Source: a virus. Taken from it: a stretch of 64,000 nt of DNA. The notes under the pieces were generated by a model. The model saw only the letters and a program-made list of their open reading frames with translations, was not told the DNA's origin and searched no databases. A program made the translations under genes and the position numbers. Numbering within the stretch: position 1 is the first letter of the stretch; each line of letters opens with the position of its first letter. The stretch is taken from the IMG/VR virus record IMGVR_UViG_3300036820_000014, positions 1-64,000 of that record. One strand, given 5' to 3'. Of the stretch, positions 3,472 through 64,000 are shown in pieces.

Positions 3472-3480
3472 TTGAGGGGC

Positions 3481-13519: not shown

Positions 13520-13597
13520 TAGCCAGCCAGATCAGGTTGCAAATGGCCGCGGCGACCAGCATGCCCCAGACGAATCCGGATACCCACGGGGTCGTCC

Positions 13598-14264: not shown

Positions 14265-14285
14265 CGTCGCTGAATAACTCCGAGC

Positions 14286-44476: not shown

Positions 44477-45384
44477 ACCCAAGCGGGGTAGTACGAGATC
44501 GAACCGCCGATCGTGTCCGGAGAAACAGCCAGTTCGGTTGTGCCGACAGGAGCCACCAGCATTGGCGTCTCCAAATTGCGCAGGTAGTAGTAGTTGTTCC
44601 CGTCAGCGTCTTCGATCGTTTCGTTGTAGAAGTCGATGACGAGTGTCGACGGGATGTTTCCCAGCGTTGGTGCGCCGGCCGGCACTGTGGGCTTCCTAAT
44701 CTGCATGACCAGGCTGCCGAGAGTGAGGCTGATCGGCCCATCGCCGCCCCCTGTATCGGTGAGCGTCACCACCATGTTCGAGCTGGGCGTATTGCCGCTG
44801 TTCGCGATGTTGAGCGTCCCGTCAGAAAGGTCAGCGGTGGAGGCTTCCTGGGTGTACTTGAACGGGTCCTCGGCGTAGAACTCCAATTCCGCCTTGAACA
44901 GATAGACGGTCGACCCCGGCGGTATCCCGACTAACGGATCCAGGTCTCCTTCCTGGCTCTGAGCCGCGAGTGTGGTGTACCCCAGATCGGTGTAGGTCAG
45001 CTTTCCTTGATTCGAGTTGCCAGACCGCACGATCGTTATCTGCTTCGGCACCTCCTCATAGACGTAGAAGGTGCCAGTCGCGCCGGTCAGGTCGAGTGCG
45101 CCGGCGAGCAAGTACTTAGAGGCCTGGCGATTGACCTCAGTGGTGGCGTGCCCGTAGATCGTCATTACGATCGAGCGTCCGCGATAGTGCAAGTCGGAGG
45201 GGATCTCTCCTTGAGCTCGTGGAGTGTTGCCGATCTTCGTGAGCATCGACACACGCATGTCCGGAGAATCCCAGCCTCCGACGTCGTCTTGAAGTGTCCA
45301 GTAGGTGCCCTCGGCGTCGGCAGTCCCGGTGTTAACCGGGATCACTCCGTTGATGTTGTATTCGGTAAATCCGAAGTCATTCAT
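44473..45384 (-). CDS. Distal tail (Dit-like) protein
   Basis: GGWDSPD, GRSIVM, AEDPFKY, NSGNTP; follows tape measure. Confidence 0.8.
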   Translation of the reverse strand: MNDFGFTEYNINGVIPVNTGTADAEGTYWTLQDDVGGWDSPDMRVSMLTKIGNTPRAQGEIPSDLHYRGRSIVMTIYGHATTEVNRQASKYLLAGALDLTGATGTFYVYEEVPKQITIVRSGNSNQGKLTYTDLGYTTLAAQSQEGDLDPLVGIPPGSTVYLFKAELEFYAEDPFKYTQEASTADLSDGTLNIANSGNTPSSNMVVTLTDTGGGDGPISLTLGSLVMQIRKPTVPAGAPTLGNIPSTLVIDFYNETIEDADGNNYYYLRNLETPMLVAPVGTTELAVSPDTIGGSISYYPAWV

Positions 45385-48300: not shown

Positions 48301-49562
48301 TTAATCGCTTCCTGCTGAGCGATCGTCGGATCGGCCGCGTCGTTGTATTCGGTCGTTGCGGCAGTGAGACGTTGTTGAGCGGCAATAACCGAACTCATCG
48401 ATTCGGTCGCCGAGTTTTGGGCTGACTTGATCGAGAGGCCAGCCTTGGTGACGGAATCCTGAGCGGTTTGAAGCGATTTGGCGGTCGCGGTGCCGGCGTT
48501 ACCGACCTCACCCAAGAAGTGCTGGAACGCTGAGCCCAGAGCGTTGATGCCTCGGGTCCCTTGGAGCCCGGCGCTATTGGCCGCGTCGATGATCAGGGTC
48601 GAGGTGCCGGCGAGACTGGGCGACAGATCGCCGAGTGTGGAGTGAAGACGAGCGAGTGATGTAGTCAGGCTGGTAACAGGCACTCCAAGCGCGCTCGAGG
48701 TATTGAACAGGACGTTGCTCGCGGCGGCCGTTCCTTTGACCTGGATCGAGAATGCGCGCATGACTGTCGCCAAAGCCGAAGTGGTGGCTCCGAGGTCGCT
48801 GTTCGATGCCTCTGCCAGATCCGCCGCTGACTTCATAAACAGGAGGTCTTGGCTCGCAGTCAGTGCATGGCCTTGGAGTGTGGCGAGCTGAGCCGACACG
48901 GGCGCGAGCGCCGCAACCATTTGAGACGCGCCGAAGGTCGTGGTCCCGGCCGTGCTCAGCAGCGCCTTGCCGATAGCGTTCGCCTGCGCCTGGGTAATCC
49001 CAGCAACTCCTTGCAACTGAGCGACGGCCGTCTGGAACTTCACCGCCGTATCGGCAGCGATCCCTCCGATGGCGGCAATGCCCAGCGCCGTTCCGCCTAC
49101 GATTTTCGACCCCAACGATGCGAAGATCCCACCGCTCGCCTCGGCGTCTGAAGCAGCGGACTTCTGTGCTGCAGCGGCCTCGCCCGCGGCGACCTTCTGT
49201 GTCTCGGCCGTCTTGACGCTGGCCCCACGAATCGCATCGGACGCGGCCGTGATTCGCTCGGCCGAAGTCTCGGACGCCGCTGCCAGGCCGGCCAGCGAGT
49301 CCGCCCCTACCGACTCCGTCAGCTTGAGTTGGTCGGCGATGCTCTTGTTGGAATCATCGATCTTGACGCCAGCACCTTCGACCTTGGCGGCGGCGTCGTC
49401 GGCGCTTGTGCCCAACTTGTCGTAGGCACCCTGGTCTGCTGTCGTGTCGAGCGTCGGCGTCGCAGTCTGAGCGGCGAACGCCGCGTCGATCTTGGCCTGG
49501 GTCTCCTCATCGAACCCGGTAAGGAGGGGCCGCAGGGCGACCCAGGCCTCGCCGACGATCAC
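45381..49562 (-). CDS. Tape measure protein
   Basis: 1393 aa, Ala-rich helical, MIVGEAWV start, L.P amphipathic repeats, FGVASP. Confidence 0.95.
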   Translation of the reverse strand: MIVGEAWVALRPLLTGFDEETQAKIDAAFAAQTATPTLDTTADQGAYDKLGTSADDAAAKVEGAGVKIDDSNKSIADQLKLTESVGADSLAGLAAASETSAERITAASDAIRGASVKTAETQKVAAGEAAAAQKSAASDAEASGGIFASLGSKIVGGTALGIAAIGGIAADTAVKFQTAVAQLQGVAGITQAQANAIGKALLSTAGTTTFGASQMVAALAPVSAQLATLQGHALTASQDLLFMKSAADLAEASNSDLGATTSALATVMRAFSIQVKGTAAASNVLFNTSSALGVPVTSLTTSLARLHSTLGDLSPSLAGTSTLIIDAANSAGLQGTRGINALGSAFQHFLGEVGNAGTATAKSLQTAQDSVTKAGLSIKSAQNSATESMSSVIAAQQRLTAATTEYNDAADPTIAQQEAIKSAELAVTAAQQRHSVALQNVAAAQTKAGQAATSLKNIQDGSAVGNSKVNATLKQLGISTIDVGGKFEGMRKLIAQLQPALAKLTPAARDLADQNLFGATSAQKVGQIIEAGVPAYDKAAAAVTRSGAASKAAQDKLNTFSGTWKSLKASVEDALIPLGQVVLKALTELLKPLTPVIAILGKELSAAFTALGPVFNTLGPVIGNLVKILGVGLVDAIKLLAPVFDTVIKAVGLLLPPLIQLLVPIGGLVDSIVKDLAPALADLLPPIEAIVDDLVKALGPAFAEIVKGLEPLLSAIAFLNETLIQALMPAFKALMPPIDQIITILGQLVSQLGQTLAPVIRALAPVIGTLVSALSSILGPALTVVAGLFKVLAPIIEQIVKALAGPLQSILAVIAPVIGSLGKAIGQVLSALTPLLAPLGQLLKALTPLLAPLLTLVVDLISPLLKLLTPLSGVIADVAKVLGGALAGAVKIITAILQPFIKLITGLVGGIQSIAKWADSTKDPLYKLGASLAGTNDVFVKHQDLVSKAIPNLGALANQLHITGAELSDFAKKGNLVTFTNLISTGQTAQADKFVAEFNARWKKAAGLATNAGQEVTAGVVAGIINSNPNLLAAAGKMTAATIDKISADFGVASPAKTMVPIGEAIPEGIAVGFTSRFSVMVEAIRQFVAKITAEFARLNPTLNIGLQAHAEGSSTAVVRTQTRELYERLTATLAQLVAETPGLVQSMTRLQASVPSLALRLNESIATLRNSARVEQDLIPAIEVLTLAIRDDVTITREKLALMARSFAEHRVEAAPIAPAVTLSLLQRQVDSLLRQTQVLEQVNFTDDRMLTLALSGSELQIRGLELSTTQKDSLSRLVILETAEVQQGVEKIRLITEIEASTSALAASANQALADCTAHFSQGHELAEREFSLHQQELTQLRAMALLMRQQLEEMQKTQKLTLMPGAGLPRSASDGASRAAGRTVGAKLAR

Positions 49563-49950
49563 TTAGGTAGTCGCTTCCGGAAGAGCCGTGGCTTGTCGCT
49601 TCTGGAACTCCTCGAGGTCTCGTTGCCGTTGCGCCCAGGCGCGCTCGACAAAGGCGTCGACGTTTCTGACTCCCAGTCCCTTCGCCGTCCGACGTGCCGA
49701 AGCGTCCTGCTCGCGTGCCGCCTGCTCGGCGGACTTGCGGGCTTTCTCCTCTGGCCAGTCCAGGGACAGGTCGATCTCTCTTCGCCTGTCCGGGTCGAAC
49801 GCGACGTTCTCGACAATGAGCGCGTAGGCCAGATTGAGCAGCCGACGGAGCGGCAGATCAGTCGGGTCGACGTTGGCAAGAACGCAACGTGCATCTATCA
49901 GAGGCCAGTTTTCGTCCGCCCACGCCGCGAGGGCGAGGACGGCGTGGTAG
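49563..49950 (-). CDS. Tail assembly chaperone, frameshifted C-terminal part
   Basis: W..IDA......DPTDLPLRRLLNLAY; entered by -1 shift. Confidence 0.75.
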
Positions 49951-50287
49951 GGCGGCCGGTATCTACCTCCGTAACCCACGCAATGATGTCTCCAAGGACC
50001 GCTGCGTCGATGATCGGAGACCCGGGGCCAGTGCGTTGACAGAACTCCGCGAACCGCGCGTACTCCTCCTTGTCCATGGCTTTACGGAAAAACTCCAACC
50101 ACGAGTCGGTGTCTTGAGACACGGCGGACCCGGTAACGCGAAGCGTCGTGAATTGAGGCACCCGATGGGGATAGACAACGAACTGCTCGGACAGCGACGT
50201 CCCTTCATCGTCTTGGTAAGCGAGCTTGAACGTCTCGCTCTGTTCTTCCTTCGCCCTGTGGGCGATTTCGAATTGCTTCACTGGCAC
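49898..50287 (-). CDS. Tail assembly chaperone
   Basis: RBS AAAAGGAG; IIAWV.E..TGRPT ending. Confidence 0.8.
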   Translation of the reverse strand: MPVKQFEIAHRAKEEQSETFKLAYQDDEGTSLSEQFVVYPHRVPQFTTLRVTGSAVSQDTDSWLEFFRKAMDKEEYARFAEFCQRTGPGSPIIDAAVLGDIIAWVTEVDTGRPTTPSSPSRRGRTKTGL

Positions 50288-50309
50288 TTGGGGGTTGCTC
50301 CTTTTCTCG

Positions 50310-50777
50310 TCAGACTCCGCCGCCGGATTCGAGGCACACGGCCTGCATGGCTCTAGTGACGAAGTCGTTCTTTTTGGGGGGTGGGTGTGACTTGACGTAC
50401 TTGCGAAAAACGGGAGCGCCGTCCTTGAACCACCGCAGGACGCCATCGGGATCTTTGGGCTCGATCGGGTACGGTCCGCCGGACGGAGCGACCAGTAGCC
50501 CGAGCGCGGAAACGTCCGAGCTCGATCCGCCGCCGCGTGTGAGCGTCGATCCGATCAGGATCATGGGTGTCTCACCGAAGATCAGTCGGCGCTCCATGGT
50601 GTCGCGCAGGTGCTTGCTGGTTCGTGGCTGGCCGTCGTCGCCCGCCTCTTTGCCAACAGGGCAGTCGGCGATTGCCACCGCCAGGATCCGGTCGGCGAAC
50701 TGGCGCCATTGCGGGCTCTGGGATACGGCGGAGTTCAGAACTGGCTGACCGTACGAGACATAACGAGCGCCCGTCAC
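50310..50777 (-). CDS. Neck/tail-completion protein (HK97 gp10-like)
   Basis: CPV...HLRD, I.PK....LRW, F.K.V..HP...NDF..RAM. Confidence 0.7.
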   Translation of the reverse strand: MTGARYVSYGQPVLNSAVSQSPQWRQFADRILAVAIADCPVGKEAGDDGQPRTSKHLRDTMERRLIFGETPMILIGSTLTRGGGSSSDVSALGLLVAPSGGPYPIEPKDPDGVLRWFKDGAPVFRKYVKSHPPPKKNDFVTRAMQAVCLESGGGV

Positions 50778-50977
50778 TTGTTGCCACAGCACATCTGGGT
50801 GAGCACCTCAGGAGGCGCCTCGCCTCGGTTGCCGGTCTCTGAGATGAGGCCAGCTGCAAGCCATCCTTCAAGGCGCGCGTCGTTCTCGTCGACGTCGGCC
50901 CAGCGACCGGCGGTCAGCCGACCTACGCCGCAATTGGCGAAGACTCGCCTCTTTCCCGCTTCGAGTCGCCCGGCCAT
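50774..50977 (-). CDS. Small hypothetical protein
   Basis: GTGA overlap with neck gene. Confidence 0.55.
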   Translation of the reverse strand: MAGRLEAGKRRVFANCGVGRLTAGRWADVDENDARLEGWLAAGLISETGNRGEAPPEVLTQMCCGNK

Positions 50978-50987
50978 TCATGAATGG
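50974..50987. promoter_or_regulatory. Perfect 14-bp palindrome CCATTCATGAATGG
   Basis: Covers the start codon at 50977, in divergent intergenic region. Confidence 0.45.
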
Positions 50988-51068
50988 TTCACGATTCATG
51001 ACCCATTAGATAGCCCTATGGCGACTAGGTAATGCGCCAGAGTTTCAGGGCGATTAGAAACGGCACCC

Positions 51069-51554
51069 ATGGAAGAGGACCGTCTGACCTACTGGACGCG
51101 ATACCCAGACCTAGAAACAGGACCGCTCTGGGTGGGATTGCACCTGCACCGCAGAGCTGGCGCAACTGTGCTCGTCGGGCTCGAAACCTGGACCGAGGCA
51201 CCCGGACGGGCCAGACGCTCGCTCGGTCCGGAAGCACCTGACAACGATGAGCTCCAGCTCTGGCCACCTCGGCCGTTGCATCTGGCGGATCTGCGCCGGC
51301 TGAGGTTCCGGGAGTTGCTCGACCAGCTATTCGCTGCGCTCCGAGATCGGGACCTCGCCGTGAACTGGCGGCCAGCTCGGCCAGGACGGCCAAAGGTCTA
51401 CGACGATGCCCACTACGAGCGAGTCGCTGGTATTTACCTCAGGGCGAGGGCCAGCAAGAGCCCGCCTGTACAGGCCGTACAGGCGACCTGGAACGTCTCA
51501 CGGGGCACAGCGGCCGGTTGGGTGGCCAAGGCTCGAGCCGCCGGTTGGTTGTGA
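51069..51554 (+). CDS. DNA-binding protein with C-terminal HTH (DUF6214-like)
   Basis: HYERVAGIY..A......PVQAV...WNVSRGTAAGWVAKARAAGWL. Confidence 0.75.
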   Translation: MEEDRLTYWTRYPDLETGPLWVGLHLHRRAGATVLVGLETWTEAPGRARRSLGPEAPDNDELQLWPPRPLHLADLRRLRFRELLDQLFAALRDRDLAVNWRPARPGRPKVYDDAHYERVAGIYLRARASKSPPVQAVQATWNVSRGTAAGWVAKARAAGWL

Positions 51555-51688
51555 CCCCACACGCGCAGCGACTCCGAGCCTGGGACCGGATCACCATGCT
51601 GGGCATCGGTCCTTCATCAGCTCGGGGCCACGGACTCCAGCCAATGGAAGAGACGGGAGGCTGCGCCGTTAGGTAAGAGTGAGGACTC

Positions 51689-52222
51689 TTACCCGGTGAC
51701 GCTCATCGTCAGCTCGGCGGCTTCCCCCGCGCTGACCGTGACCTCTACCGAACCGGACTCGCCGAAAGGCTGACCGGAAGGGTCATCAACCGCAGAGCCG
51801 TCCGAGTTGATGAGAGGAACCGGAGCGAGGTTCGCTGTGCCCTCGGCAACCATCGTGAGAGGCGCCGACCACAGGCCAGGCGTGGCTCCAGCTACGGCAT
51901 CGCCTACGGTCAGAGCCGCCGGATTGTCCGAGGTCGCGGAGGGTGCGATCGGGAAACCTGTAACCGAGTCGTTCGGCCCGGCGGTGTCGTCCAGGTGGTC
52001 ATCGGTGAATTGGAAAACGGCTGCGCCATCGGTGGTGTCGACGGTAAAACTTGTTCCCATTTTGGGCTCCTTAGTGACGGTCATGGCGAGCCACGATGCT
52101 CTCCGGGGATTCGGTACGACCTGGACCTGAAGCGGTTGCTCAGGCCAGTGGAAGTGGACGTGTAGCTCGATCGACGTCGGCGCCAGAGCGTCGACTGCGG
52201 GAACCTCGTCGTCTGCGTCCAC
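51689..52222 (-). CDS. Ig-like beta-rich protein, possible internal start at 52060
   Basis: TSDNPA.LTV, G.ANL, VTVSAGEA; RBS TAAGGAG before 52060. Confidence 0.6.
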   Translation of the reverse strand: MDADDEVPAVDALAPTSIELHVHFHWPEQPLQVQVVPNPRRASWLAMTVTKEPKMGTSFTVDTTDGAAVFQFTDDHLDDTAGPNDSVTGFPIAPSATSDNPAALTVGDAVAGATPGLWSAPLTMVAEGTANLAPVPLINSDGSAVDDPSGQPFGESGSVEVTVSAGEAAELTMSVTG

Positions 52223-54036: not shown

Positions 54037-54194
54037 TGGTGGCACCTACACCCGCCGTCCGAACAGTTCTCGGCGACCCGGTTGCAACCATCCTCGTCTT
54101 GGCGAGGACAGCCGCACCCGACGCACAGGTGGTTGCCGTAGCCGCCGAGTGGCGACTTGCTTTCGAGGTCGGGCTTCGTCTCCGGAAGGTTCAT
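54033..54194 (-). CDS. Small Cys-rich protein
   Basis: ATGA/GTGA overlaps. Confidence 0.45.
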   Translation of the reverse strand: MNLPETKPDLESKSPLGGYGNHLCVGCGCPRQDEDGCNRVAENCSDGGCRCHQ

Positions 54195-55708
54195 AGCGCC
54201 ACCTCTTCTTCGGGCTTGCCCATTCCGAGAAGCTCGCGGAGAGCCCCGCAATTCGAGACGTCCAACTCCAACTTCGCCCGGGTCACCGCGACGTACAGGA
54301 GCCGTAGCTCGCTGCTCAAGTCCTTAGGACGACCGTCAGGCCCTATGGATGGCATCAGGTCCTCGGCGAAGTCATCCGCCAGCCGTACCTTCGGGAACTC
54401 CAGGCCCTTGGCTTTGTGTGCCGTCGAGACGACCACGTCGGCCGAGGTGCGCCTGTCCATGCGCCCGAGGGCATCAAGGATGACCTCGCACCCGAACTCC
54501 TCGACCAGCGACACCATGAGGCGCAATTCGTCACCTTGTGGGTCGATCCTGGAGTACTCGATCACTTCATCCCAAGAACGGAAACATGCCAATTCTGGGT
54601 GAGCGGTCCAGCCTCGTTCCATGAGGTCGGTCGCCGCCCTGGCAAACGATGCGACCTCGGCACCACCGCCCACCAGATAGACACCTCGGCCAGCCGCCTG
54701 CAGCCTGAGCACCGTCGTGACGGCCCCGGCGTTGGTCCTGGTAAGAATCGCCGATGGGTTCGGCATCCTTTCCACCAGCCGCGAGGACACCTCAGGGTTG
54801 CCCGAGAGCATGAACGGGGAATCGAGGCGACGCAGGAGCGTGTTGGCCACGGTGGCGATCTCATCGCCGAAGCGGAAGGACTTGGTCAGGTAAGACCTGA
54901 GATCGGCCGGCACCCGCTCCAAGGCGTTGACCGCCCCACGCCACTCATAAATCTGCTGCTGGGAGTCACCCACGAATACAAGCTGGGTTCCCCTGGCCAC
55001 CTGCTGCTCGACGATCGACAGCATGACCGGCGCGGCGTCCTGGGCCTCATCGAAGAGGACGAAGTCTGCCGCCATCTTCGGGTCGTTCAGCTCGAACATC
55101 TTGAGGTAGTGATCGTGCTCGAACTTGAGCCGGCCGCCCGGGTCGCAGATGTCCGCCCAAGCGGCACCGAGGAACGGGGCGATGTGAGCGCGCACCGCGT
55201 TGTTGTTGTCGAACGACCGCTCGTGGGTGGTCTCGTTGGGCAGGTCGATCCCGTCGATGTATGGCACGTGGTGGACGCCTGGGACCTTGTCGGTGGACTG
55301 GCAGAAGTTCCGGACCCCACGCATGACAAGCGAGGCCAGATAGCCCCGCTGGAGCACCTTGGACTCAGACCCATAGCGGATCACGAATTGCGTGATGCCC
55401 ATCTGTCGGGCGATCTCGTCGGAACGGACCCGAGACGCACCGAGGCGGTGGCGATACCGCTGCCCGATCGCCCTCATGGCGAGAGAGTGGGCCGTCGAGG
55501 CGCGGACGTTGTCGGGGCAGCGACGTCCGAAGTCATCGACGATCGCCCGGTTGAACGCGACGTACTGGCCATGCCCTCTCGGTGCCGACTCGGCGCACAT
55601 GATGAGTGTCGATGTCTTGCCCGTTCCGGCTCCCGCTTCGATCGCGAGACCCATCCCGGTTCCGAACGCCTCGACCGCCGCTACTTGCTCATCGGTTGGC
55701 TTGGGCAT
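54191..55708 (-). CDS. UvrD/Rep-like SF1 helicase
   Basis: AGAGTGKT, TAHSLA, FDEAQD, VGDSQQQIYEWRGA, LTKSFRFG, STAHKAKGLEF, LLYVAVTRAK. Confidence 0.93.
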   Translation of the reverse strand: MPKPTDEQVAAVEAFGTGMGLAIEAGAGTGKTSTLIMCAESAPRGHGQYVAFNRAIVDDFGRRCPDNVRASTAHSLAMRAIGQRYRHRLGASRVRSDEIARQMGITQFVIRYGSESKVLQRGYLASLVMRGVRNFCQSTDKVPGVHHVPYIDGIDLPNETTHERSFDNNNAVRAHIAPFLGAAWADICDPGGRLKFEHDHYLKMFELNDPKMAADFVLFDEAQDAAPVMLSIVEQQVARGTQLVFVGDSQQQIYEWRGAVNALERVPADLRSYLTKSFRFGDEIATVANTLLRRLDSPFMLSGNPEVSSRLVERMPNPSAILTRTNAGAVTTVLRLQAAGRGVYLVGGGAEVASFARAATDLMERGWTAHPELACFRSWDEVIEYSRIDPQGDELRLMVSLVEEFGCEVILDALGRMDRRTSADVVVSTAHKAKGLEFPKVRLADDFAEDLMPSIGPDGRPKDLSSELRLLYVAVTRAKLELDVSNCGALRELLGMGKPEEEVAL

Positions 55709-55709
55709 G

Positions 55710-56219
55710 TCACTCGTCTGTCGTCGGGATAAGGCTATCTACAGGCTCCATCGGGACAACGTGATAGACGTACGCACCGCATCGCTCACAAAGGGTGCGC
55801 GTGCCGAACGGCCGCAGGCACGAGGAGCACTCGCGAACCCATGAGATCGGCTTGCCGTTGATCTCGGTGACACTCTCGGCCAGGTACACCTTGTTTTGGT
55901 TCTCGACTATGCCGAAGGCCAGGTCTCCGTCGTAGTCGCAGAGGGCGTCGACCGTTCCTTCGATGACCTGAGCCACGCCATCCCAGAACCGCATGCTCAC
56001 GCGGTAACCGGGCTTGAGGACGGCGTCAGCATCAGGTACCACCCAGAGGCCGAACCGCTCGCGGGCGCACGCACCGTGTAACCACTGGCCTCGGTATAGA
56101 GCCGGGATCTCATCGAGCGCACCATCGGGATCGGACTTGATGTCATCGCCGCATAGTTGGCACATCTCGAAGTCGGGGGCGTCGTCAGCGGAGTCGTAGG
56201 TTTCGCCGTTCCTATCCAC
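55710..56219 (-). CDS. Zn-finger hypothetical protein
   Basis: RBS GAAAGGA; CQLC, H..C, CSSC, CERC. Confidence 0.6.
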   Translation of the reverse strand: MDRNGETYDSADDAPDFEMCQLCGDDIKSDPDGALDEIPALYRGQWLHGACARERFGLWVVPDADAVLKPGYRVSMRFWDGVAQVIEGTVDALCDYDGDLAFGIVENQNKVYLAESVTEINGKPISWVRECSSCLRPFGTRTLCERCGAYVYHVVPMEPVDSLIPTTDE

Positions 56220-56263
56220 TTGGTCGGTTCCTTTCATTTGGGTTGGAGCTTTCACTGGTCACA

Positions 56264-56280
56264 CTATAACCGAGTTTTAG
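56264..56280. promoter_or_regulatory. 17-bp operator between divergent promoters
   Basis: CTATAACCGAGTTTTAG; TATAGT on minus strand, TATGCT on plus strand. Confidence 0.7.
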
Positions 56281-56298
56281 CCGCTATGCTCTCGGATC

Positions 56299-56586
56299 AT
56301 GCCCACAGCCACTCAGCCCACGGCGTCCACAGAATCCCCAGAGGATGTCGATGGGGTGCTCGCCAGCCTTGAGAGTGCCCGTCTGTGCGTCGAGAACTCG
56401 AAGATCGCCTTCGATGAGGCCCGGTACGTGGCAGTGACCACCCTGGAGGCGACCGGCTGGACCCGAGAGAAGATCGGCGAGGCTCTGGGGTGCTCGCCCA
56501 TGAGGGTCCGCCAGCTCGCGGGGTCTAGGAAGGACGGCGGTCCGAAGGGTCCGCCGAGAGGCCGATGGGCTCCCAGGACGACCTAG
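56299..56586 (+). CDS. Small HTH regulator (candidate repressor)
   Basis: GWTREKIGEALGCSPMRVRQL; TATGCT 8 nt before ATG. Confidence 0.75.
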   Translation: MPTATQPTASTESPEDVDGVLASLESARLCVENSKIAFDEARYVAVTTLEATGWTREKIGEALGCSPMRVRQLAGSRKDGGPKGPPRGRWAPRTT

Positions 56587-56795
56587 GCGAGACCGAGGTC
56601 CGGCGCCTGGGCCGATCTGGTGATCGTCATGCCCGCATCGCCACCTGTGCCCGCTTGCCGAAGGACGTCCACGAGGCGCTCAGGATCGCCGCCGAGGACC
56701 GCGGGGTCTCGATGAATTGGCTGATCTGTCGGGCCGTCGCCGAGTATCTGGACCGCCTGGTCCCGGTCGAAGAGATGCTCCTAACCCGGGACTGA
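56565..56795 (+). CDS. Ribbon-helix-helix protein
   Basis: TCARLPKDVHEALRIAAEDRGVSMNWLICRAVAEYL. Confidence 0.8.
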   Translation: MGSQDDLGETEVRRLGRSGDRHARIATCARLPKDVHEALRIAAEDRGVSMNWLICRAVAEYLDRLVPVEEMLLTRD

Positions 56796-56818
56796 GGTCC
56801 GAGAACCGGGGATCCCGG

Positions 56819-58120
56819 TTAGTTCGGCAGGGCCGGTACCGCCGGCGGGACGATGGCCGGGAGTTGGCTCGGACACGCTGCATCGAAGGCGACACCCGTA
56901 GGTGTCTTGTTCCCGCAAGCGAGTGACGAGGACTTCCCCAGCGTCGCGAAGGGATAACCCGTGCCACCGATCGAGGGCAACGGATCGGTGTTGCCCATCA
57001 CCAGCACGTCCACCGTATTTAGGACGTTCACAGGTGACCGGTTAGGCCACGTGCTCGAGGCCGTCGATGTGTTGCCCGAGATCAGGACGTTGGCGTTCGC
57101 CGAACCGCCGAAGTTGTGAGGTGCCACGAAGATCCGGATCTGGGCACCAGTGACGAGCTGGAGGTCCGTGATGGCCACCCGCTGGAGCTCGGTACCGGTA
57201 TACGCAGCGAACAGGTAGCCGTAGTTCTGACCGATGATCTTGTCGTGGGTGATGTCGATATCCGTGTCGATTGCCGCCGCATAAGTGACGTCGGTCTCGT
57301 CATCGAACATGGTCAGTCCGGCACCTTGGAAGGTGTCCTGGCTGATGAGCACGCGGTGGGCACCGTTCGTCTCGGAGATCCCCATCCGGCCGGCGTAGGA
57401 GAACCTCGAGTGCTCGATCGTGACGTCCGTGCTCGGCATCCCACCACCACCGCCGGGAGCCTCGTGTAGCCCCGAGATGGTTACGAAGTCGCCCCATGGA
57501 CCGTGCTCGGTGTCGTCCAAAAGGAGGACGCGCTGAGCCCCGTCGATCGAGATGAAGGAGTCCGGCTGAAGCGCCGGGGTATCGCCTGACTTAGACGAGT
57601 GCGAGCCGGTGATTGTGAGGTCTTTGATGGTGAGGTCACACCCGCCATCGAGCGTGAGTAGCTCGACCTGAGACGTGATGCCCGAATAGAGATCGTTCAT
57701 ATATGCCGTCGAGCCGCAGTACGGAGCGACAGACGGGTTGTCACGGCCACCAACCACCGTGTCGGGGACGGTCGTCGAGGTCTCTCGAATCGTCGCTCCG
57801 TTGCCGTCCAGGTCGATATTCCTGGCTCCTCGCCACCACCAGGAGCCGTTGACCAGGTAGCAGGCACCCTTCTTGAGTTTGGCGATGGAGTCGTGGCCCG
57901 GCGTTCCATCCCGGACGCTCATCAACCATGCTCCGAGACTGGCCGTGTCATCGACCTTGCAGGTGGTGTCGATCGTCTTAGGTGGGGTGAAAGTGGTCGG
58001 TGCCTTGATGGTCACTTTCGGCTTCGGTGCCGGCGAGCTGACGGCTAAGCCGATCCCGACACCAGCACCGGCCAAGACTACGGCGAGGGCTCCAATAAGT
58101 AGCTTGCGGCGGCGAGTCAC
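56819..58120 (-). CDS. Membrane-anchored/secreted right-handed beta-helix (pectate lyase-like) protein
   Basis: RRRK + hydrophobic helix, Pro/Lys linker, DDTASL, LDGNGATI, repeated V.I..N rungs. Confidence 0.75.
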   Translation of the reverse strand: MTRRRKLLIGALAVVLAGAGVGIGLAVSSPAPKPKVTIKAPTTFTPPKTIDTTCKVDDTASLGAWLMSVRDGTPGHDSIAKLKKGACYLVNGSWWWRGARNIDLDGNGATIRETSTTVPDTVVGGRDNPSVAPYCGSTAYMNDLYSGITSQVELLTLDGGCDLTIKDLTITGSHSSKSGDTPALQPDSFISIDGAQRVLLLDDTEHGPWGDFVTISGLHEAPGGGGGMPSTDVTIEHSRFSYAGRMGISETNGAHRVLISQDTFQGAGLTMFDDETDVTYAAAIDTDIDITHDKIIGQNYGYLFAAYTGTELQRVAITDLQLVTGAQIRIFVAPHNFGGSANANVLISGNTSTASSTWPNRSPVNVLNTVDVLVMGNTDPLPSIGGTGYPFATLGKSSSLACGNKTPTGVAFDAACPSQLPAIVPPAVPALPN

Positions 58121-58130
58121 CCGCGCGGGT

Positions 58131-58736
58131 TTACCAGCCGAGGTCGACCATGGTAGCGATACTGGCTAGACCTCCGGCGGGGCCCTTCGAGCGGCTCTCT
58201 CCGACCAGTGCTCGCCCGTAGCCAGGGCTCTGGATCGGCGGGTCCAGCGTTACACCGCCGAGCGAGTACGCGAGGAGAGCCGAACGCACTATGAAATGGT
58301 CGCGCCAGAGCCCGTGACGGGCTGCGATGACCTCGTCCGGATCGGCGTACTTGCCTGTCTCACCACCTCGGATCGTTGGCCACGGGTGCACAACGTCAAC
58401 GACGAAGGTAGTGACCCGCAGAGCGACCTTTCCGAACTCTCCACTCACATCCTGGAACTGCTGCTGGCCAGCTCGCCCAGGAAGCAGCGTTGGCATCGCG
58501 ACGATCAGCTGCTTACCTCCGCCGATCCACCATGGTGCCGCTTCTGAGTGCACTACCTGGCGACGCGCGTATTCGTCTCCTCGTTGGAAGTAATCGAGAG
58601 ACTGCCCGGCGATCGCCAGAAGCCCTTCTCCCATGAGCGAGAGAAGCTGCTGGTTCGGGATCCACTGAGGGGCGGGAGGGAAGCTGACCGTGAACGGTTG
58701 CATCCCCTCCGGAGGCAGGTCGAAGTCATCGCTCAT
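58131..58736 (-). CDS. Probable tail terminator/tail completion protein
   Basis: Position after adaptor; QL.V, GP.GG C-terminal motif. Confidence 0.55.
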   Translation of the reverse strand: MSDDFDLPPEGMQPFTVSFPPAPQWIPNQQLLSLMGEGLLAIAGQSLDYFQRGDEYARRQVVHSEAAPWWIGGGKQLIVAMPTLLPGRAGQQQFQDVSGEFGKVALRVTTFVVDVVHPWPTIRGGETGKYADPDEVIAARHGLWRDHFIVRSALLAYSLGGVTLDPPIQSPGYGRALVGESRSKGPAGGLASIATMVDLGW

Positions 58737-58879
58737 GCGTCGGAGTCCTCAAGGGTGCAGAACACCTGGAGCCACATCTCCTCCCAATATCGAGCGACCG
58801 GGTCATCTCGGCTCACGCCGTCGTCAATGATGTCGTGCTCGTTGTTGCGGATCTTGCGACGTCGACGACGACGTATCAC
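58733..58879 (-). CDS. Small protein (48 aa)
   Basis: GTGA and ATGA overlaps at both ends. Confidence 0.4.
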   Translation of the reverse strand: MIRRRRRRKIRNNEHDIIDDGVSRDDPVARYWEEMWLQVFCTLEDSDA

Positions 58880-59730
58880 TGGCCGTATGGCATCGAACGG
58901 CCCTGGACCGAGTTCGGAGCAAGGAACGACGCTCGCCGGCGTAGCCCGTTGGGATTCTTCGCCTTCAGGAAGGCCGCGCACCAAGGGAGCGGGATGATGT
59001 TGTCGCGCAGGTGCGCGATCGAGTCGGCCACCTGGACGCTCACGCCCTCGGATGCCATCGACACGACCCGGTTGGAAAGCACCGACAGGTCGCTTCCTGA
59101 GAACGACAGGGCCAACTCGATGGTCAACTCGACGCAGGCCGCCCACCCGGATGCCGGGACCGGTCGGCCCCACTCGTAGTCGATCAGCCAGGTCCCCGGA
59201 TAGCTGAGCGGAAGCTGAAGTTGCTGCTCCCACGGCCACGCTGACGCGCCCTGGGAGGCGGGGTTGATGTTGCGGACCAGGCGTCTTCGGTCGTAGAGGG
59301 TGTAGTCGGCACCCTCTACGAGCTCGACGCCGTTCACAAGCACCTGGTTGATCCGGGTGACCGGTCCCTGGAGGACGACCTCTGCGAGGTCCTGGCCGTT
59401 GTTCCACCAACCCATCCCCGGTGCCGTCCAGGCCCAGCCGGCAGCGAAGCCCCACGCCGAGCCGTAGCCCGACATCGATGAGTAGGGATAGAGGAAGCTC
59501 TGGTTGGCGTATGACGAGTTGATTGTGGTCGGCCGAATCCGAGAGCGCCCAGTGCGGTACTGGCGGCCGCTGAAGCAGTAGAGCAGGTCAGTGGCCACGC
59601 CGATCATCCGCCCGATGTCGATGTCTTGGACCTTGGCTAGCCGTCTCGTCGGGATGTCGTCCTCGTTGCACCATGGCGAGAGCCACGTCTCGGCTGCTGG
59701 CGCTACTGTGGCGATGGCTGGGGCACCCAT
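58876..59730 (-). CDS. Head-tail adaptor
   Basis: ATDLLY..SGRQY, L.GPV..I..V.VNG, WP..Q.L, Y.WG.PVP, RV.S...EGVS. Confidence 0.8.
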   Translation of the reverse strand: MGAPAIATVAPAAETWLSPWCNEDDIPTRRLAKVQDIDIGRMIGVATDLLYCFSGRQYRTGRSRIRPTTINSSYANQSFLYPYSSMSGYGSAWGFAAGWAWTAPGMGWWNNGQDLAEVVLQGPVTRINQVLVNGVELVEGADYTLYDRRRLVRNINPASQGASAWPWEQQLQLPLSYPGTWLIDYEWGRPVPASGWAACVELTIELALSFSGSDLSVLSNRVVSMASEGVSVQVADSIAHLRDNIIPLPWCAAFLKAKNPNGLRRRASFLAPNSVQGRSMPYGQ

Positions 59731-60371
59731 CAGGAGGCCTGCTCGTAGGTGATCCCGGTGTCTGAGGGGAAGGTGATCGTGCCGGCTCCGGTCAAGACGA
59801 TCGTGCCGTCCGGTTGGGCAACGAACTGGCCCGAGCTCGATGGCGTAATCGGATCCCCACCCTCTGTCGCTGAGATGTTGACAAGGTCGGCACTCACGAC
59901 CGTGACCACCCAATACTGAGTATCTGTCGTGAACCCCGTCGGGATCCCTGTGTTCGAGAGAGCAGGATCTTCGTAAAGCCGGATCACGTCGTTCACGCTG
60001 AGGCCGTGTGCGGGAATGATGATGTCGTCATCGGTGCCGACGGCGCAGCACCCCATCGGTTGACCGGCCAAAGGCCAGCCTGCGAGGAAGGTGCCACCCG
60101 TCTGAGCTGTCCAGAAGCCGACCCAGGGGATCGTCTCCGCTCCAGCGACATCGATCGAGAGATCGCCCGAATTGTTCTCGGTGCCGTCCGTGCCACTGAA
60201 GGTGATCTGTTGGCGACCATCTGCTCCAGTGCCGCTCGTTATCTCGTTCGCGCCCGTTCCACCCGGACTCCCTGAGTGAAGCGACAGCCAGACCTCAGAG
60301 ATGTCATAGCTGGTGTTCTCACAAAGCGCCTGAGCGAGCCCCTGTAGTTGTGCAGTGGTCAGCCCCATCAA
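59730..60371 (-). CDS. Virion structural (fibre-like) protein
   Basis: LSLHSGSPGGTGANE, GFWTAQTGGTFL; HGLSVNDVI beta-barrel insert. Confidence 0.75.
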   Translation of the reverse strand: MMGLTTAQLQGLAQALCENTSYDISEVWLSLHSGSPGGTGANEITSGTGADGRQQITFSGTDGTENNSGDLSIDVAGAETIPWVGFWTAQTGGTFLAGWPLAGQPMGCCAVGTDDDIIIPAHGLSVNDVIRLYEDPALSNTGIPTGFTTDTQYWVVTVVSADLVNISATEGGDPITPSSSGQFVAQPDGTIVLTGAGTITFPSDTGITYEQAS

Positions 60372-60384
60372 AATCCCCTATCCG

Positions 60385-60882
60385 TCACTCGCTTGATGAT
60401 AAGGCTCCGACCATGAACCATCCGGGACATTGAGGGTCGGCCATGAGTTCAACGACGGTGAGCCCCACCTCGCTTGCGAGCGACCGGAGCGCACCCGCTG
60501 AGAATCGCCAGTAATCCGGCGGATTGTGCACCGGGAACGCTCCCCTCTGAGCGTCGTATCCGCGACAGGTGAGTATGAGCGTGCCGTTGTATCGCAGGAG
60601 TCGAGCGATCTCCTTGAACGTTTCCCATGGTCGAGGATCGTGCTCGAGCATCTCGGTCGTCACCACGACATCAAATGATCCGGTGGAGAACGGGATGATG
60701 CCCGGCTCAACGACGAAGTCGACCCCTGGTCCTTGGGCTAGATCGACCCCCATGTAGTCGCCGGTAAAGAAGCGTCTTATCGACCCGTTTACGTCTGCCG
60801 ACCCGATCTCTAATACCGACCGATGTGACAAGGAAAACTGATCGACCTTTCTTTCCACCCACTCCATGACCGATTCATGCAC
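60385..60882 (-). CDS. Class I SAM-dependent methyltransferase (type 11)
   Basis: VLEIGSADVNGS, GVD...GPGVD, EMLEH, H.PPDYWRF. Confidence 0.88.
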   Translation of the reverse strand: MHESVMEWVERKVDQFSLSHRSVLEIGSADVNGSIRRFFTGDYMGVDLAQGPGVDFVVEPGIIPFSTGSFDVVVTTEMLEHDPRPWETFKEIARLLRYNGTLILTCRGYDAQRGAFPVHNPPDYWRFSAGALRSLASEVGLTVVELMADPQCPGWFMVGALSSSE

Positions 60883-60927
60883 GGGCTCGGCGTTGGACAG
60901 AGCCGGTCATCCCCCGGCTGTCCTCCA

Positions 60928-61140
60928 TCACGCCGCCAGCTTGTCGAAGACCATTTCACCATCGACTACCAGGCTGAGGTCTCCGTCGACGCCGACGAAG
61001 GCTGTCCAGTTGCACTCATCGGGACTGATCCAACCCTGGTAACGATCCGCTGGCCATTGACAGCCCGGATTGGACTCCTCAAGCTCGGCTCGCTGCTCGT
61101 CGGTCGGCACGGGATACCTCCCCACGCTGATGTTGCACAT
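60928..61140 (-). CDS. Small hypothetical protein (70 aa)
   Basis: Strong RBS AAAGGAGGTG; overlaps GT 3' end. Confidence 0.6.
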   Translation of the reverse strand: MCNISVGRYPVPTDEQRAELEESNPGCQWPADRYQGWISPDECNWTAFVGVDGDLSLVVDGEMVFDKLAA

Positions 61141-62959
61141 TCGCTTCACCTCCTTTCGTGCTTTTGGTTGCGACTTTTTCATAGCCCACACGGGCCTTTT
61201 CCTGCTCAGCAAACCAATCGACGTTGTTCGCGTCGAACGTGGCATGACCATCGTGGTGGACATAGCACCCGTCAGCGATGACCAGGTCGCCGAAGGCCTT
61301 CAGCTTCCGGCAGAGGTCGTCGTCTTCATAGCCGCCCATCGAGTCGTTGAACTTCCGGAAGCGCCCGACCTTGTTGAACATCTCAGCCTCGACCGCCAGG
61401 CAGAAGCCGACGAGACGATCCGTCTTACGACTACGACCCTGGTGAGACTTGAGCCATTCGGCGGAGAACTCCTCGAGGTCATCGATCTCCGGCGCCTCCT
61501 CGACAATTTGCGGCCCGCTCACGCATCCCGCTCGAGCGCCTGATGCGACAACGGTCTCGGAGCGAAGGTGACCGATCAGCTCGTTTAGCCAGCCCTCGGT
61601 GACGATGACGTCGTTGTTCAAGAACACCAGCGTCGGGTTGGTAGCCGCCTCTGCCCCGGCGTTGCAGGCTGCGGCGAACCCGCGGTTGGGCGCGGCCCAG
61701 CCGATCTCCTTTAGTCGCTTGTCCTTGAATCGCCACTGAACTGAACAGATCGCGCCAACACCAGCTGTTTTATCTGTCGAACCGTCATTGACAAGAACAA
61801 CCTCGTCATCGGTGTTGAGTGTCGGGAGTAGCGCGTCGAGGCACCGTTCGGTCATGGCCCAGGCGTTCCACACCGGCACGATTACAGAGACGGCAGGACG
61901 ACCCCAGTGGGCGCGCATCTTCGAGAGATCGGCTAGGAGTTGACCATCGACCGCGTAGCCTTCCGCCGCCTTGGCTCCGAGTTCCAGTTCCTCGAGCGAC
62001 CTATCGAGATCCCCGAGCCGCTCGAAAGCGACGGCGAGGTAGTGGTGAAACCGCCACGGCAACGAGTCGTCTCGGAGGTAGTGGGTAACAGGCGGACACG
62101 CGAGCCCACGCTCGGCGGCTTCGATCACATCGACATGGCGCTTGAGGTCCGATGACCACGCGGCCTTGGCGAACCATGCTCCGGGCTCGTCGGGTGCCTC
62201 GACGGTTCCCTGGTGAACCCAGAAGAGCACGTCCTCGTCTTGAGCTCCCGTCTTCGAGCTGGCCATCGCCAGCCATCGACACGTCGCGGCCCGCTCGTTC
62301 GGCGTTCCTGTCGTGAGGTCCATCGCCCGTTGGCCTGTTCTGAGGACCTCGAGCCAGTCCTGACGTAGCCCGTACTCTCGGCTCAGGTAGGCCCACATGC
62401 GGAAATCACTGGGCTGCTCCGAGACGGCGAGCTCCAAGAGGCCGAGGTATTGAGTCCTCGGCTTTGAGTTGTCAGGCCGATGCTTGATGAGCGCACCTTC
62501 GATGAAGACAGCATGCTCCTCTCGCATGGGATAGGGCACCGCGACCTCGTGACACGGTGCGACCCACCGGTAGCCCTTGCGGCCGTGGATCCGATTGACC
62601 TGCCACCGCGCGCCAGTGTCGATCTCGATGAAGCCTCGCTCGAACGGACCTGCCTTTTCCCACGCACGCCGGACGGCCTTGATGAATCCAGGAGCGAGGA
62701 CCTCGTCCATGTCGAGCGAGATGCACAGGTCCACGTCGACCGGCAGAAGCGCCAGTGCAGCGTTCCTGGCGTCATCGAACCGCCAGGGGTCGATCGAGAT
62801 GGACGAGACGGTGACACCGACATTCCTTAGCGCCTTGACCGTTCCATCCGTCGAGCCGGTATCAGCGACGAACCGGAAGTCAGCTTGCGCGCACGAGGTC
62901 GCCCACCGTCTCGCGTGAGCGACCTCGTTGTAAGCAACTGTATAGACCGCGATCTTCAC
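61079..62959 (-). CDS. Double GT2 glycosyltransferase with central TPR region
   Basis: GT-A 1: KIAVY..AYNE, DTGSTD, PWRFDDARN, LDMDE, HE. GT-A 2: VSVIVPVWN, VNDGSTD, GFAAACN, FLNND, GYEDDD. Confidence 0.9.
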   Translation of the reverse strand: MKIAVYTVAYNEVAHARRWATSCAQADFRFVADTGSTDGTVKALRNVGVTVSSISIDPWRFDDARNAALALLPVDVDLCISLDMDEVLAPGFIKAVRRAWEKAGPFERGFIEIDTGARWQVNRIHGRKGYRWVAPCHEVAVPYPMREEHAVFIEGALIKHRPDNSKPRTQYLGLLELAVSEQPSDFRMWAYLSREYGLRQDWLEVLRTGQRAMDLTTGTPNERAATCRWLAMASSKTGAQDEDVLFWVHQGTVEAPDEPGAWFAKAAWSSDLKRHVDVIEAAERGLACPPVTHYLRDDSLPWRFHHYLAVAFERLGDLDRSLEELELGAKAAEGYAVDGQLLADLSKMRAHWGRPAVSVIVPVWNAWAMTERCLDALLPTLNTDDEVVLVNDGSTDKTAGVGAICSVQWRFKDKRLKEIGWAAPNRGFAAACNAGAEAATNPTLVFLNNDVIVTEGWLNELIGHLRSETVVASGARAGCVSGPQIVEEAPEIDDLEEFSAEWLKSHQGRSRKTDRLVGFCLAVEAEMFNKVGRFRKFNDSMGGYEDDDLCRKLKAFGDLVIADGCYVHHDGHATFDANNVDWFAEQEKARVGYEKVATKSTKGGEANVQHQRGEVSRADRRAASRA

Positions 62960-62972
62960 GGCCTGGATTCTG

Positions 62973-63167
62973 TCAGGCGCCAGTCGGCCCCGTCGGCCCC
63001 GTCGGGCCAGTGACACCTGTTCCGCCTGTCCCACCCGTGCCACCGGTTGGACCGGTAGCGCCAGCGGGCGTGGCAAAGACGAAGGCAGTGCCATTCCAGG
63101 TCGGGACCTGACCGGTCAGAGGGGGAGGACCGGTGACAACTGGCGGATTCGGGAACTCGGTAGCCAT
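62973..63167 (-). CDS. Mini collagen-like protein (64 aa, G-x-T repeats)
   Basis: RBS AAGGAG; GQVPTWNG then GATGPTGGTGGTGGTGVTGPTGPTGPTGA. Confidence 0.8.
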   Translation of the reverse strand: MATEFPNPPVVTGPPPLTGQVPTWNGTAFVFATPAGATGPTGGTGGTGGTGVTGPTGPTGPTGA

Positions 63168-63202
63168 GTCTTCTCCTTGTCGAAACGGATTCGGACGAGC
63201 GC

Positions 63203-64000
63203 TTAGGCGACGGGCAGCGTCTGGTAGCCAGGCTGGAGCGGGGACGGAAGCTCGAAGTCGCAAAGCTGGTCGCAGAACGCCGTGGTATCGACGGGAGCGC
63301 CGACGGCCGGCATCGCCGAGGTGCGCCAGTCATCGAGAGGCCCGGTTCCAAAGTTCGGGTTCTCGATCGCCCACCCTCGGAACATCGGAGTCTCTTCTTT
63401 GTCTTCCTTCGACCAACCGTCCCAGAAGAGGAACGCACGGAAGACGCCGACTCTGAGCCACGCTGAACCCGGAATCGTGGCCGTGCCGGCCGAAGGGTAC
63501 GGCGTGGTGCCCTGGTAACCGGTGCCTCGGACGATGAGCCTCGACCAGACCTCGATCGACACTCCGTTCGGACACGGCACGGTGAGCAGATGCGGGAACG
63601 CATACCCGATCGTCGAGACGGGTTGGGCACCCAAGGTGATCGAGACGCCGGTCAAGCTTGTGGTCGACACGGCGCTAACACGCACCTCTGTGGCCGAGAT
63701 GTACTCCGAGACGTAGGCCCCGGTCGCGACGCCAGTGCCGGTGACGGAGCGGCCGACGTCAGTGTCCACAAAGGATGCGTCGGCGGCCGAGGTGATGATG
63801 TTCGATTCGAATGCCACGACGCCATCGGCGAAGGTGCGCCCCGCCGTGCCGGAAGCCGTGAGGATCTGGCCACCGCCGAGGAGTTCCTGCTGTTCGGGAT
63901 CCCAGTCACCGAGGCTGAGGTTCACGTCCCACCGCTTGTAGCGGTCGCAGTCCTTGTAACTGATGACCGGGACGCCGCACGCGGACTTCGGAGTGATCTC
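63203..64000 (-). CDS. Major tail protein (5' end outside window)
   Basis: Open to the edge: EITPKSACG..ISYKDCDRYKRWDVNL..DPE..ELLGGG; NGVSIEVWS; ENPNFGTGP. Confidence 0.85.
   Translation of the reverse strand, partial: EITPKSACGVPVISYKDCDRYKRWDVNLSLGDWDPEQQELLGGGQILTASGTAGRTFADGVVAFESNIITSAADASFVDTDVGRSVTGTGVATGAYVSEYISATEVRVSAVSTTSLTGVSITLGAQPVSTIGYAFPHLLTVPCPNGVSIEVWSRLIVRGTGYQGTTPYPSAGTATIPGSAWLRVGVFRAFLFWDGWSKEDKEETPMFRGWAIENPNFGTGPLDDWRTSAMPAVGAPVDTTAFCDQLCDFELPSPLQPGYQTLPVA

Follow-up and report, generated by a model that had tools for sequence, protein, structure and literature searches.

We analyzed a 64,000-nucleotide (nt) stretch of viral DNA (here called the window), which comprises bases 1 to 64000 of IMG/VR record IMGVR_UViG_3300036820_000014 and derives from a soil phage with a siphovirus-type genome. 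The full record is 78,258 nt in length, carries direct terminal repeats, and has a completeness rating of 100%; the GC content of the window is ~0.62. Between positions 60385 and 63167 lies a compact cassette composed of an open reading frame (ORF) for a 64-amino-acid (aa) collagen-like peptide, a gene for a 626-aa glycosyltransferase (GT), a 70-aa ORF, and a gene for a 165-aa class I S-adenosylmethionine (SAM) methyltransferase. The cassette and all of the neighboring genes treated here are encoded on the minus strand, and coordinates follow the numbering of the window unless another record is named. The arrangement suggests that the phage may encode a very short collagen-like appendage together with the enzymes that would glycosylate it and methylate the glycan.

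The 64-aa ORF (63167 to 62973) starts with ATG, has an AAGGAG element five bases ahead of this start, and ends with a TGA stop codon at 62975 to 62973. The first 35 residues of its product (63063 to 63167) form an N-terminal module with the pattern M..FPNPP...GQV..W.G....TP, in which GQVPTWNG occupies residues 19 to 26. Residues 36 to 64 (62973 to 63062, including the stop codon) consist of nine uninterrupted G-x-T triplets at residues 36 to 62 (GAT, GPT, GGT three times, GVT, and GPT three times), followed by GA. Both the GQV.TWNG motif and the nine triplets had been pointed out in an earlier note made from the sequence of the window, and both were recovered here. Cysteine is absent from the 64 residues. 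The G-x-T run is the sole run of at least five G-x-y triplets in all frames of the 78,258-nt record, and the longest G-x-T run in 20 mononucleotide shuffles of the window was 2. The repeat is written with diversified codons (four for glycine and four for threonine), and the only tandem repeat at the DNA level in this stretch consists of the terminal 2.6 copies of a 9-nt unit. The GC content by codon position did not discriminate the reading frame of the peptide.

Exactly 13 nt separate the stop codon of the peptide gene from a GTG at 62959, from which a 626-aa ORF extends to 61079. All aligned homologues begin at the residue encoded by this GTG, with M-K/R-I-A-V-Y at their N termini. A longer reading from the ATG at 63094, which overlaps the peptide gene, was rejected because every aligned homologue starts at the GTG-62959 residue; likewise, a single frameshifted or overlapping gene for the peptide and the GT was rejected on the basis of the homologue starts and because read-through of the TGA leaves the GT frame. 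Family phrog_13126 spans GT residues 1 to 349 (E value, 4e-63), and Pfam family GT2 (PF00535) matches the C-terminal half (E value, 5e-26). An AlphaFold2 model based on a 76-row alignment (mean pLDDT, 83) is predicted to contain a GT-A domain at residues 1 to 165 (62465 to 62959) and ten helices forming a TPR-like repeat at residues 170 to 352 (61904 to 62452), both with pLDDT values of 95 to 98, followed by a second GT-A domain of the GT2 type from residue 357 to ~570 (delimited on the genome as residues 355 to 575; 61235 to 61897). The spacer and the agreement of Pfam, phrog_13126, and AlphaFold2 bear out the GT2-TPR-GT2 fusion that had been proposed to start 13 nt after the peptide gene. 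The protein itself gave no Pfam TPR match at an E value of ≤0.01, and its homologues of 338 to 367 aa carry precomputed Pfam TPR families. Residues D83, D85, and E86 are invariant in the 76-row alignment and in a 20-row alignment and correspond to the D-x-D-type motif of metal-dependent GT-A enzymes, and the C-terminal half retains N-D-D and E-D-D-D stretches. The best PDB sequence match of the second GT domain was 5hea (E value, 2e-10). Across the record, PF00535 matched only the two GT domains of the 626-aa gene, and no other GT or sugar pathway Pfam family was found in 55 further ORFs of the window or in 11 ORFs of the record past the window. We identified at least 990 homologues of the N-terminal half, most of which are 338 to 367 aa long and a few of which are fusions of 575 to 604 aa; the fusion to the C-terminal half is shared with homologues P0005 and P0118 and with locus L033.

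The methyltransferase gene (60882 to 60385) was identified by matches to Methyltransf_23 (E value, 5e-10; 39.8 bits against a cutoff of 27), Methyltransf_11 (37.9 bits against a cutoff of 21.2), and phrog_32762 (E value, 9e-22). Its best PDB match, a weak one, was a D-glucose O-methyltransferase (E value, 0.004). The glycine-rich loop is atypical (LE.GS.D.NGS), and the same loop is found in a homologue on viral contig L029 (GC content, 0.49), where a 575-aa GT fusion is directly followed by a phrog_32762 methyltransferase with 34% identity to that of the phage (positions 5793 to 8122 of the contig). The gene had been noted to follow the GT, which it does, with an intervening ORF that had been missed. 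This 70-aa ORF (61140 to 60928) has a strong ribosome-binding site, AAAGGAGGTGA, overlaps the last 62 nt of the GT gene, and belongs to no known family. It has one homologue, with 68% identity; a 72-aa homologue in the related genome L209 is located elsewhere, after the adaptor gene and a 201-aa gene. The 70-aa ORF is probably an unrelated conserved phage gene that stands outside the glycosylation set.

A word-based search with residues 1 to 40 of the peptide returned no small homologues, which were later recovered by an exhaustive HMMER search (413 matches at an E value of ≤0.001). End-to-end homologues of similar size are P0133 (58 aa; 74% identity) and P0201 (62 aa), both with G-x-T triplets, and in a lake phage (L039) a 55-aa mini-collagen gene ends 23 nt ahead of the GT gene; this 55-aa form scored 22.6 bits against the Pfam Collagen family, under the 27.2-bit cutoff. 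In addition, at least 15 longer collagen-like proteins (211 to 1111 aa) open with the module of the peptide, in the form M.I.FPN.P ... W.W.G..W, and continue with G-x-T repeats. The module is covered by no Pfam family. A scan of viral contigs with three mini forms yielded 11 loci, all of which were internal motif matches in fiber-like ORFs of 413 to 949 aa, and nothing was found in these 11 loci by tblastn with nine cassette and neighboring proteins. In contig L029, a further ORF consisting of the module only (63 aa; positions 3336 to 3527) is located 2.3 kb upstream.

Close relatives of the phage were found via the 317-aa protein that is encoded directly upstream of the peptide gene, namely, L209 (61% identity), L210 (56%), and L211 (55%). 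In these genomes, a variable slot lies between the 317-aa gene and the gene for the head-tail adaptor or a Gp80-like protein, and the ORFs in the slot all start with the module. The slot is occupied by (i) a mini-collagen of 55 aa, in which five triplets are G-x-Q and one is G-A-T, in L209 (positions 7174 to 7341), (ii) a 316-aa Gly-rich protein in L211 (7191 to 8141), and (iii) four ORFs of 110, 182, ~190, and 733 aa in L210 (7217 to 11628). The C-terminal parts of these proteins are unrelated, being Gly-rich, composed of GPDGNLW repeats, or mini-collagens, and the module would be a shared plug for exchangeable appendages. In the syntenic and more distant L033, the adaptor gene is preceded by genes for a collagen-like protein of 726 aa and a GT fusion of 589 aa. 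No match to phrog_13126 was found in L209, L210, or L211, the record of L209 being complete and our own record serving as the positive control. Threonine at position Y of the triplets thus goes with the GT2-TPR enzyme in this phage, and glutamine is found without it in L209.

Sequence comparison indicates that the 64-aa ORF represents a genuine, conserved gene, since mini homologues exist (P0133 and P0201), the 55-aa form of L209 has the same position, and the module is reused in longer proteins. That it might instead be a functionless, decaying N-terminal remnant of a longer collagen-like fiber gene is suggested by the 726-aa protein in the same region of L033 and by the many longer proteins that share the module. 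Against such decay stand four independent short forms (55, 58, 62, and 64 aa) that have equivalent end points at 41% to 74% identity, as well as the strong ribosome-binding site and the diversified synonymous codons of the repeat, and we regard a remnant as quite improbable.

The linkage of the GT2-TPR enzymes to collagen genes was surveyed in loci fetched with relatives of the N-terminal half (30 viral, 73 metagenome, and 80 genome loci). Six of the 73 metagenome loci dropped out of the scoring, five because tblastn gave no match and one because its match began only at residue 122, which left 67. To count as a collagen ORF, an ORF had to be at least 30 aa long and to contain at least five G-x-y triplets, no fewer than half of which had threonine at y, as well as a stretch of four or more G-x-T/S triplets in a row. 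We scored each locus for such an ORF on the same strand as the GT gene with its end no more than 700 nt upstream of it, provided that 300 nt or more of upstream sequence was available. Such an ORF was present in 56 of 169 loci (16 of 29 viral, 13 of 61 metagenome, and 27 of 79 genome loci), counts in which the loci are not independent. The density of collagen ORFs within 700 nt was 3.3 to 7.9 per 10 kb, compared to 0.09 to 0.11 per 10 kb at distances of more than 3 kb (30- to 90-fold). The filter is conservative, missing, for example, a 242-aa protein with three short G-x-T blocks whose gene ends 4 nt before the GT gene in L004 and L005. In a FastTree phylogeny of 138 N-terminal halves, 51 of which are adjacent to collagen genes, the trait requires 25 changes, compared to ~41 in shuffles, and collagen adjacency is therefore spread over many clades. 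The relatives in the genome collection are mostly from Clostridia and Bacilli, and the bacterial neighbors are BclA-like proteins with a Cys-rich N terminus, GPT repeats, and a globular C terminus (L157 of Clostridium minihomine, L121, and L078). The occurrence of this enzyme family beside Thr-rich collagens, which had been noted for C. difficile, extends through Clostridia and Bacilli and to many phages. A full-text literature search, in which subscription journals were mostly outside the coverage, found no report that, judged by title or abstract, ties phage collagen-like proteins to an adjoining glycosyltransferase.

Two other arrangements were seen among the surveyed loci. In five chromosome-like loci with a GC content of 0.62 to 0.67 (L077, L081, L087, L089, and L094), the GT2-TPR gene follows a gene for a multidomain protein of 1170 to 1250 aa with GT-like and methyltransferase-like parts. 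One of these, L081, also contains a 938-aa ORF, 5 kb away on the opposite strand, in which 159 of 163 triplets are G-x-T.

In a Foldseek search against the PDB, the top matches of the GT model were the glycocin S-glycosyltransferases SunS and ThuS (7msn, 7msk, and 7msp; E values, 2e-16 to 5e-14; TM scores, 0.55 to 0.66 on the target), followed by chondroitin polymerase K4CP and next by polypeptide GalNAc-transferases. The likeness to SunS and ThuS concerns the fold of the N-terminal half, the sequence identity in the structural alignments being 14% to 17%. SunS and ThuS glycosylate a small ribosomal peptide encoded nearby, and sublancin is encoded in a prophage. The small peptide and the SunS-like enzyme encoded next door could by this likeness form a glycocin-type system for a secreted glycosylated bacteriocin. 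The acceptors in glycocins are, however, cysteines in Cys-rich helical-hairpin peptides with nested disulfides, and export and disulfide genes are needed, whereas the phage peptide is devoid of cysteine, and Pfam and PHROGs scans of the neighbors and 55 further ORFs revealed neither an ABC transporter/peptidase nor a thiol-disulfide oxidoreductase family. The combination of module and collagen repeat, moreover, matches the design of phage fiber proteins. We give the glycocin interpretation hardly any credence and rejected it on the missing cysteines and the missing export and disulfide genes in these scans.

SgtA of Clostridioides difficile offers a parallel for the N-terminal half of the enzyme. 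As described in PMC7157674, SgtA is a 358-aa protein with a GT-A domain at residues 1 to 260 and TPRs at residues 262 to 358, is encoded beside bclA3, and adds beta-O-GlcNAc to the threonines of collagen repeat peptides in vitro; further sugars and a cap are reported there for BclA3. The phage protein has the same succession of GT-A and TPR within ~350 aa, and its gene is co-oriented beside a Thr-rich G-x-T gene, so that the previously suggested likeness to the SgtA family is supported in architecture and gene position. Unlike SgtA (CD3350), the phage enzyme carries a second GT2 domain as a fusion and is encoded in a phage structural module. The putative substrate also differs, as BclA-type proteins are long and have a C-terminal globular domain, whereas the phage peptide has 64 aa, and its gene is upstream of the enzyme gene, whereas that for BclA3 is downstream. 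Another collagen-like surface protein, BclA of Bacillus anthracis, carries O-linked, partly methylated sugars on its GPT repeats. In that case, unlike here, the protein belongs to the spore of a bacterium, and to our knowledge its priming enzyme has not been defined as a GT2-TPR neighbor.

Based on the gene anatomy, the family-wide linkage to G-x-T collagens, a fold like that of peptide glycosyltransferases, and the fact that the mini gene and its module are conserved, we estimate at roughly 60% the probability that the peptide threonines undergo SgtA/BclA3-like O-glycosylation, that the glycan is extended by the second GT domain, and that it is then methylated. The 64-aa product would serve as an appendage of the virion in the form of a minimal collagen, a short trimeric whisker that bears glycans, in which the 35-residue N-terminal module would trimerize and/or dock the peptide and the nine G-x-T triplets would make up the stalk. 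The N-terminal GT-A/TPR half of the enzyme would act in priming: like SgtA on BclA3, it would place the first sugar onto threonines of the stalk. The second GT2 domain of the fusion would then extend the glycan by a further sugar, and the 165-aa methyltransferase would cap the glycan by O-methylation. The sugars might, in turn, let so short a stalk fold. The use of the threonines as acceptors, the sequence in which the enzymes would act, the kinds of sugar, and the placement in the virion are inferred, as is the sugar-dependent folding of the stalk, which is drawn from peptide chemistry.

Several observations weigh against this reading. At the level of the individual genes, the peptide has no match to Pfam Collagen (PF01391) at an E value of ≤0.01 despite its nine uninterrupted triplets, a Shine-Dalgarno sequence is absent ahead of the GT start, and the second GT domain was modeled with low confidence. 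In contig L029, the module is present in a 62-aa ORF ahead of the GT gene, but collagen repeats are not. Of the three genes, a survey of whose co-occurrence the earlier note had proposed, collagen and GT were found together in the 56 loci described above, and a GT fusion with a methyltransferase was found in L029. No collagen ORF lies within 700 nt in 13 of the 29 viral loci, in 48 of the 61 metagenome loci, and in 52 of the 79 genome loci; clustering at 70% identity groups the viral and metagenome enzymes into 23 clusters, about half of which have a collagen gene. The covariation of threonine or glutamine with the presence or absence of the enzyme comes from a single pair of genomes. Finally, L209 keeps its mini-collagen without a GT2-TPR enzyme, and the existence of the peptide is therefore independent of the cassette; the notion of a dedicated short collagen is supported as far as the conserved small gene and its anchor-like module are concerned and is weakened by this relative. 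The same genome encodes a 431-aa fusion of GT2 and Methyltransf_11 and a TOD1/MUCI70-like protein just before its capsid genes (L209, positions 218 to 2186), which suggests that there may be a second, nonhomologous glycosylation set in this phage group and that capsid or tail proteins may therefore be targets of the GTs in the group.

These genes of L209, together with its retained mini-collagen, also speak for an alternative in which the GT and the methyltransferase of the cassette have their targets elsewhere in the virion, for example, in the 317-aa product or the capsid protein, and the mini-collagen is a mere neighboring appendage gene. In Gordonia phage Sixama (L208; positions 49002 to 51916), two annotated GT genes, gp91 and gp92, are likewise located just ahead of gp94, which carries the note "major tail protein," and mycobacteriophages Che8 and Rita bear glycans on capsid proteins according to PMC11256854, which cites Freeman 2023. 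That source describes the actinobacteriophage-encoded GTs as thought to modify virion proteins, a trait that the soil phage would share. Its proposed target would, however, be a collagen-like peptide and not a capsid protein, and a tblastn search with the GT against 50,697 phage records matched 13 records, none of which was from a Mycobacterium phage. The GT2-TPR family is, moreover, linked specifically to G-x-T collagen genes, with a spacer of 13 nt in the present case, and a Ser/Thr-rich tail was found in none of the structural ORFs of the record (the maximum in a structural gene was 10 of 20 residues). Modification of other virion proteins instead of the peptide appears unlikely on this evidence.

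The enzymes might also act on the host envelope or a polysaccharide in surface conversion or superinfection exclusion. The PHROGs category of phrog_13126 is "moron, auxiliary metabolic gene and host takeover," and its name is beta-1,4-glycosyltransferase; GT2 enzymes often use lipid-linked or polysaccharide acceptors, and the C-terminal half has weak NCBIfam matches to exopolysaccharide and teichuronic acid enzymes. The genes, in turn, lie in the late structural block, no membrane-spanning segment was noted, the fold is nearest to soluble peptide glycosyltransferases, and the family is linked to collagens, all of which makes an envelope target very improbable.

Glycosylation of the peptide, the interpretation that we favor, would have consequences for how its stalk folds. 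As described in PMC11923368, Ac-(Gly-Pro-Thr)10 is a random coil and forms a triple helix only with galactose on its threonines, and a sugar is thus plausible as a folding requirement in the phage peptide. In worm cuticle collagen and (Gly-Pro-Thr)10, the sugar stabilizes threonine at position Y, as it would do here, with ten triplets in the synthetic peptide and nine in the phage (PMC11923368); unlike in the phage, these systems are animal or synthetic, the sugar is galactose, and there is no dedicated linked enzyme gene. The same 2025 analysis reports that TGP triplets are anomalously frequent in viruses, suggests glycosylation of viral Thr-rich collagens as a cause, and describes as unsettled whether and when such glycosylation happens and whether it takes place on unfolded chains or on folded helices. 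We tentatively consider, as an idea that is rather doubtful at present, that glycosylation is a folding switch. The nine-triplet stalk would become helical only after its own GT2-TPR enzyme has coated it with sugar, and the methylated glycan, in place of a protein head, would be the working tip (an adhesin or a shield) of a stalk set on a reused plug.

A model of three copies of the peptide gave an ipSAE of 0.67, compared to 0.00 for the best of three controls, with a contact agreement between runs of at least 99% and a partner pLDDT of at least 87; the predicted interface involves residues 34 to 64 and parts of residues 3 to 26. In the calibration of this tool, which was made on two copies and not three, the mark was reached by 21 of 30 solved same-chain pairs and by none of 23 single chains. 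Because collagen helices are well represented among solved structures, the trimer result may reflect only a likeness to these.

The cassette is bordered upstream by the 317-aa structural gene (63203 to 64156 of the record; the window holds its 3' part, 63203 to 64000), which is located in the interval from the capsid genes to the head-tail adaptor gene. The cassette had been described as coming right after the major tail gene, and its position directly downstream of the 317-aa gene was confirmed, with the label of that gene being unsure. The match to phrog_792 ("major tail protein") is weak and covers residues 8 to 100 only (E value, 8e-6). The record of Gordonia phage GodonK labels its homologue "major tail protein," and the Sixama homologue, gp83, is hypothetical in the original record and "major tail protein" only in the RefSeq copy, the note "major tail protein" of Sixama being placed on a different gene, gp94. 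An AlphaFold2 model of the 317-aa protein (13 alignment rows; mean pLDDT, 45) was too poor for an identity call. The weak and partial family match, the conflicting Sixama labels, and the gene position therefore leave the "major tail" label uncertain.

Downstream of the methyltransferase gene, a 213-aa protein (59730 to 60371) is predicted to have a Gp80-like fiber monomer domain (Pfam PF23140; E value, 4e-12; phrog_240); the role of Gp80 is treated in PMC13730344. Homologues of this protein precede the adaptor in L210 and L211, and we treat it as a context gene. The head-tail adaptor gene (58876 to 59913; phrog_783; E value, 4e-33) is conserved in L209, L211, and L033 and forms the downstream border of the variable slot. 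A scan of positions 58500 to 64000 gave no promoter-like and two terminator-like sites, a count no higher than in shuffled sequences. In 103 viral and metagenome GT loci, no tblastn match was found for the 70-aa ORF product or the Gp80-like, 201-aa, and 433-aa proteins.

Farther downstream, the 433-aa ORF (56819 to 58120) has a hydrophobic N-terminal segment that follows an Arg/Lys stretch, matches no family, has structural genes as its neighbors, and has no counterpart in the GT loci. Positions 54191 to 56795 contain a DNA helicase gene (phrog_1967), a 181-aa ORF, and two small plus-strand ORFs, one of which is RHH/CopG-like, and these genes interrupt the run of structural genes, with the head-tail adaptor region on one side and the tail genes on the other. 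The tape measure gene (1393 aa; 45381 to 49562) is followed by a Dit-like gene. The portal and 766-aa major head protein genes are located in the same record past the end of the window; the nearest named relatives of the capsid gene are "major capsid hexamer" genes of Gordonia, Arthrobacter, and Microbacterium phages (~30% to 35% identity). A 281-aa ORF with a match to glycoside hydrolase family 12 (E value, 4e-16; record positions 76366 to 77211, corresponding to L002 positions 13467 to 14312) adjoins the portal and head morphogenesis genes. A megablast search with positions 56000 to 64000 gave zero matches in phage records.

What sets this locus apart is its 64-aa mini substrate, its GT-TPR-GT fusion accompanied by a methyltransferase of its own, the plug module that recurs in other proteins, and a relative that bears Gln and has no GT2-TPR gene; the mini substrate and the fused double enzyme are the new features. 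With 64 residues, nine putative acceptor threonines, one two-domain enzyme, and one methyltransferase, the locus is about the smallest natural test system for such glycosylation, and L209, in which glutamine replaces threonine in the mini-collagen and the GT2-TPR enzyme is absent, provides a natural comparison. If the proposed chemistry is true, it would name an enzyme for viral collagen glycosylation, provide a direct test of whether sugars fold very short collagens, and represent a second kind of virion glycosylation besides that known from actinobacteriophages. If the folding switch were true as well, it would, together with the family-wide linkage, explain the high frequency of Thr-Gly-Pro in viral collagens.

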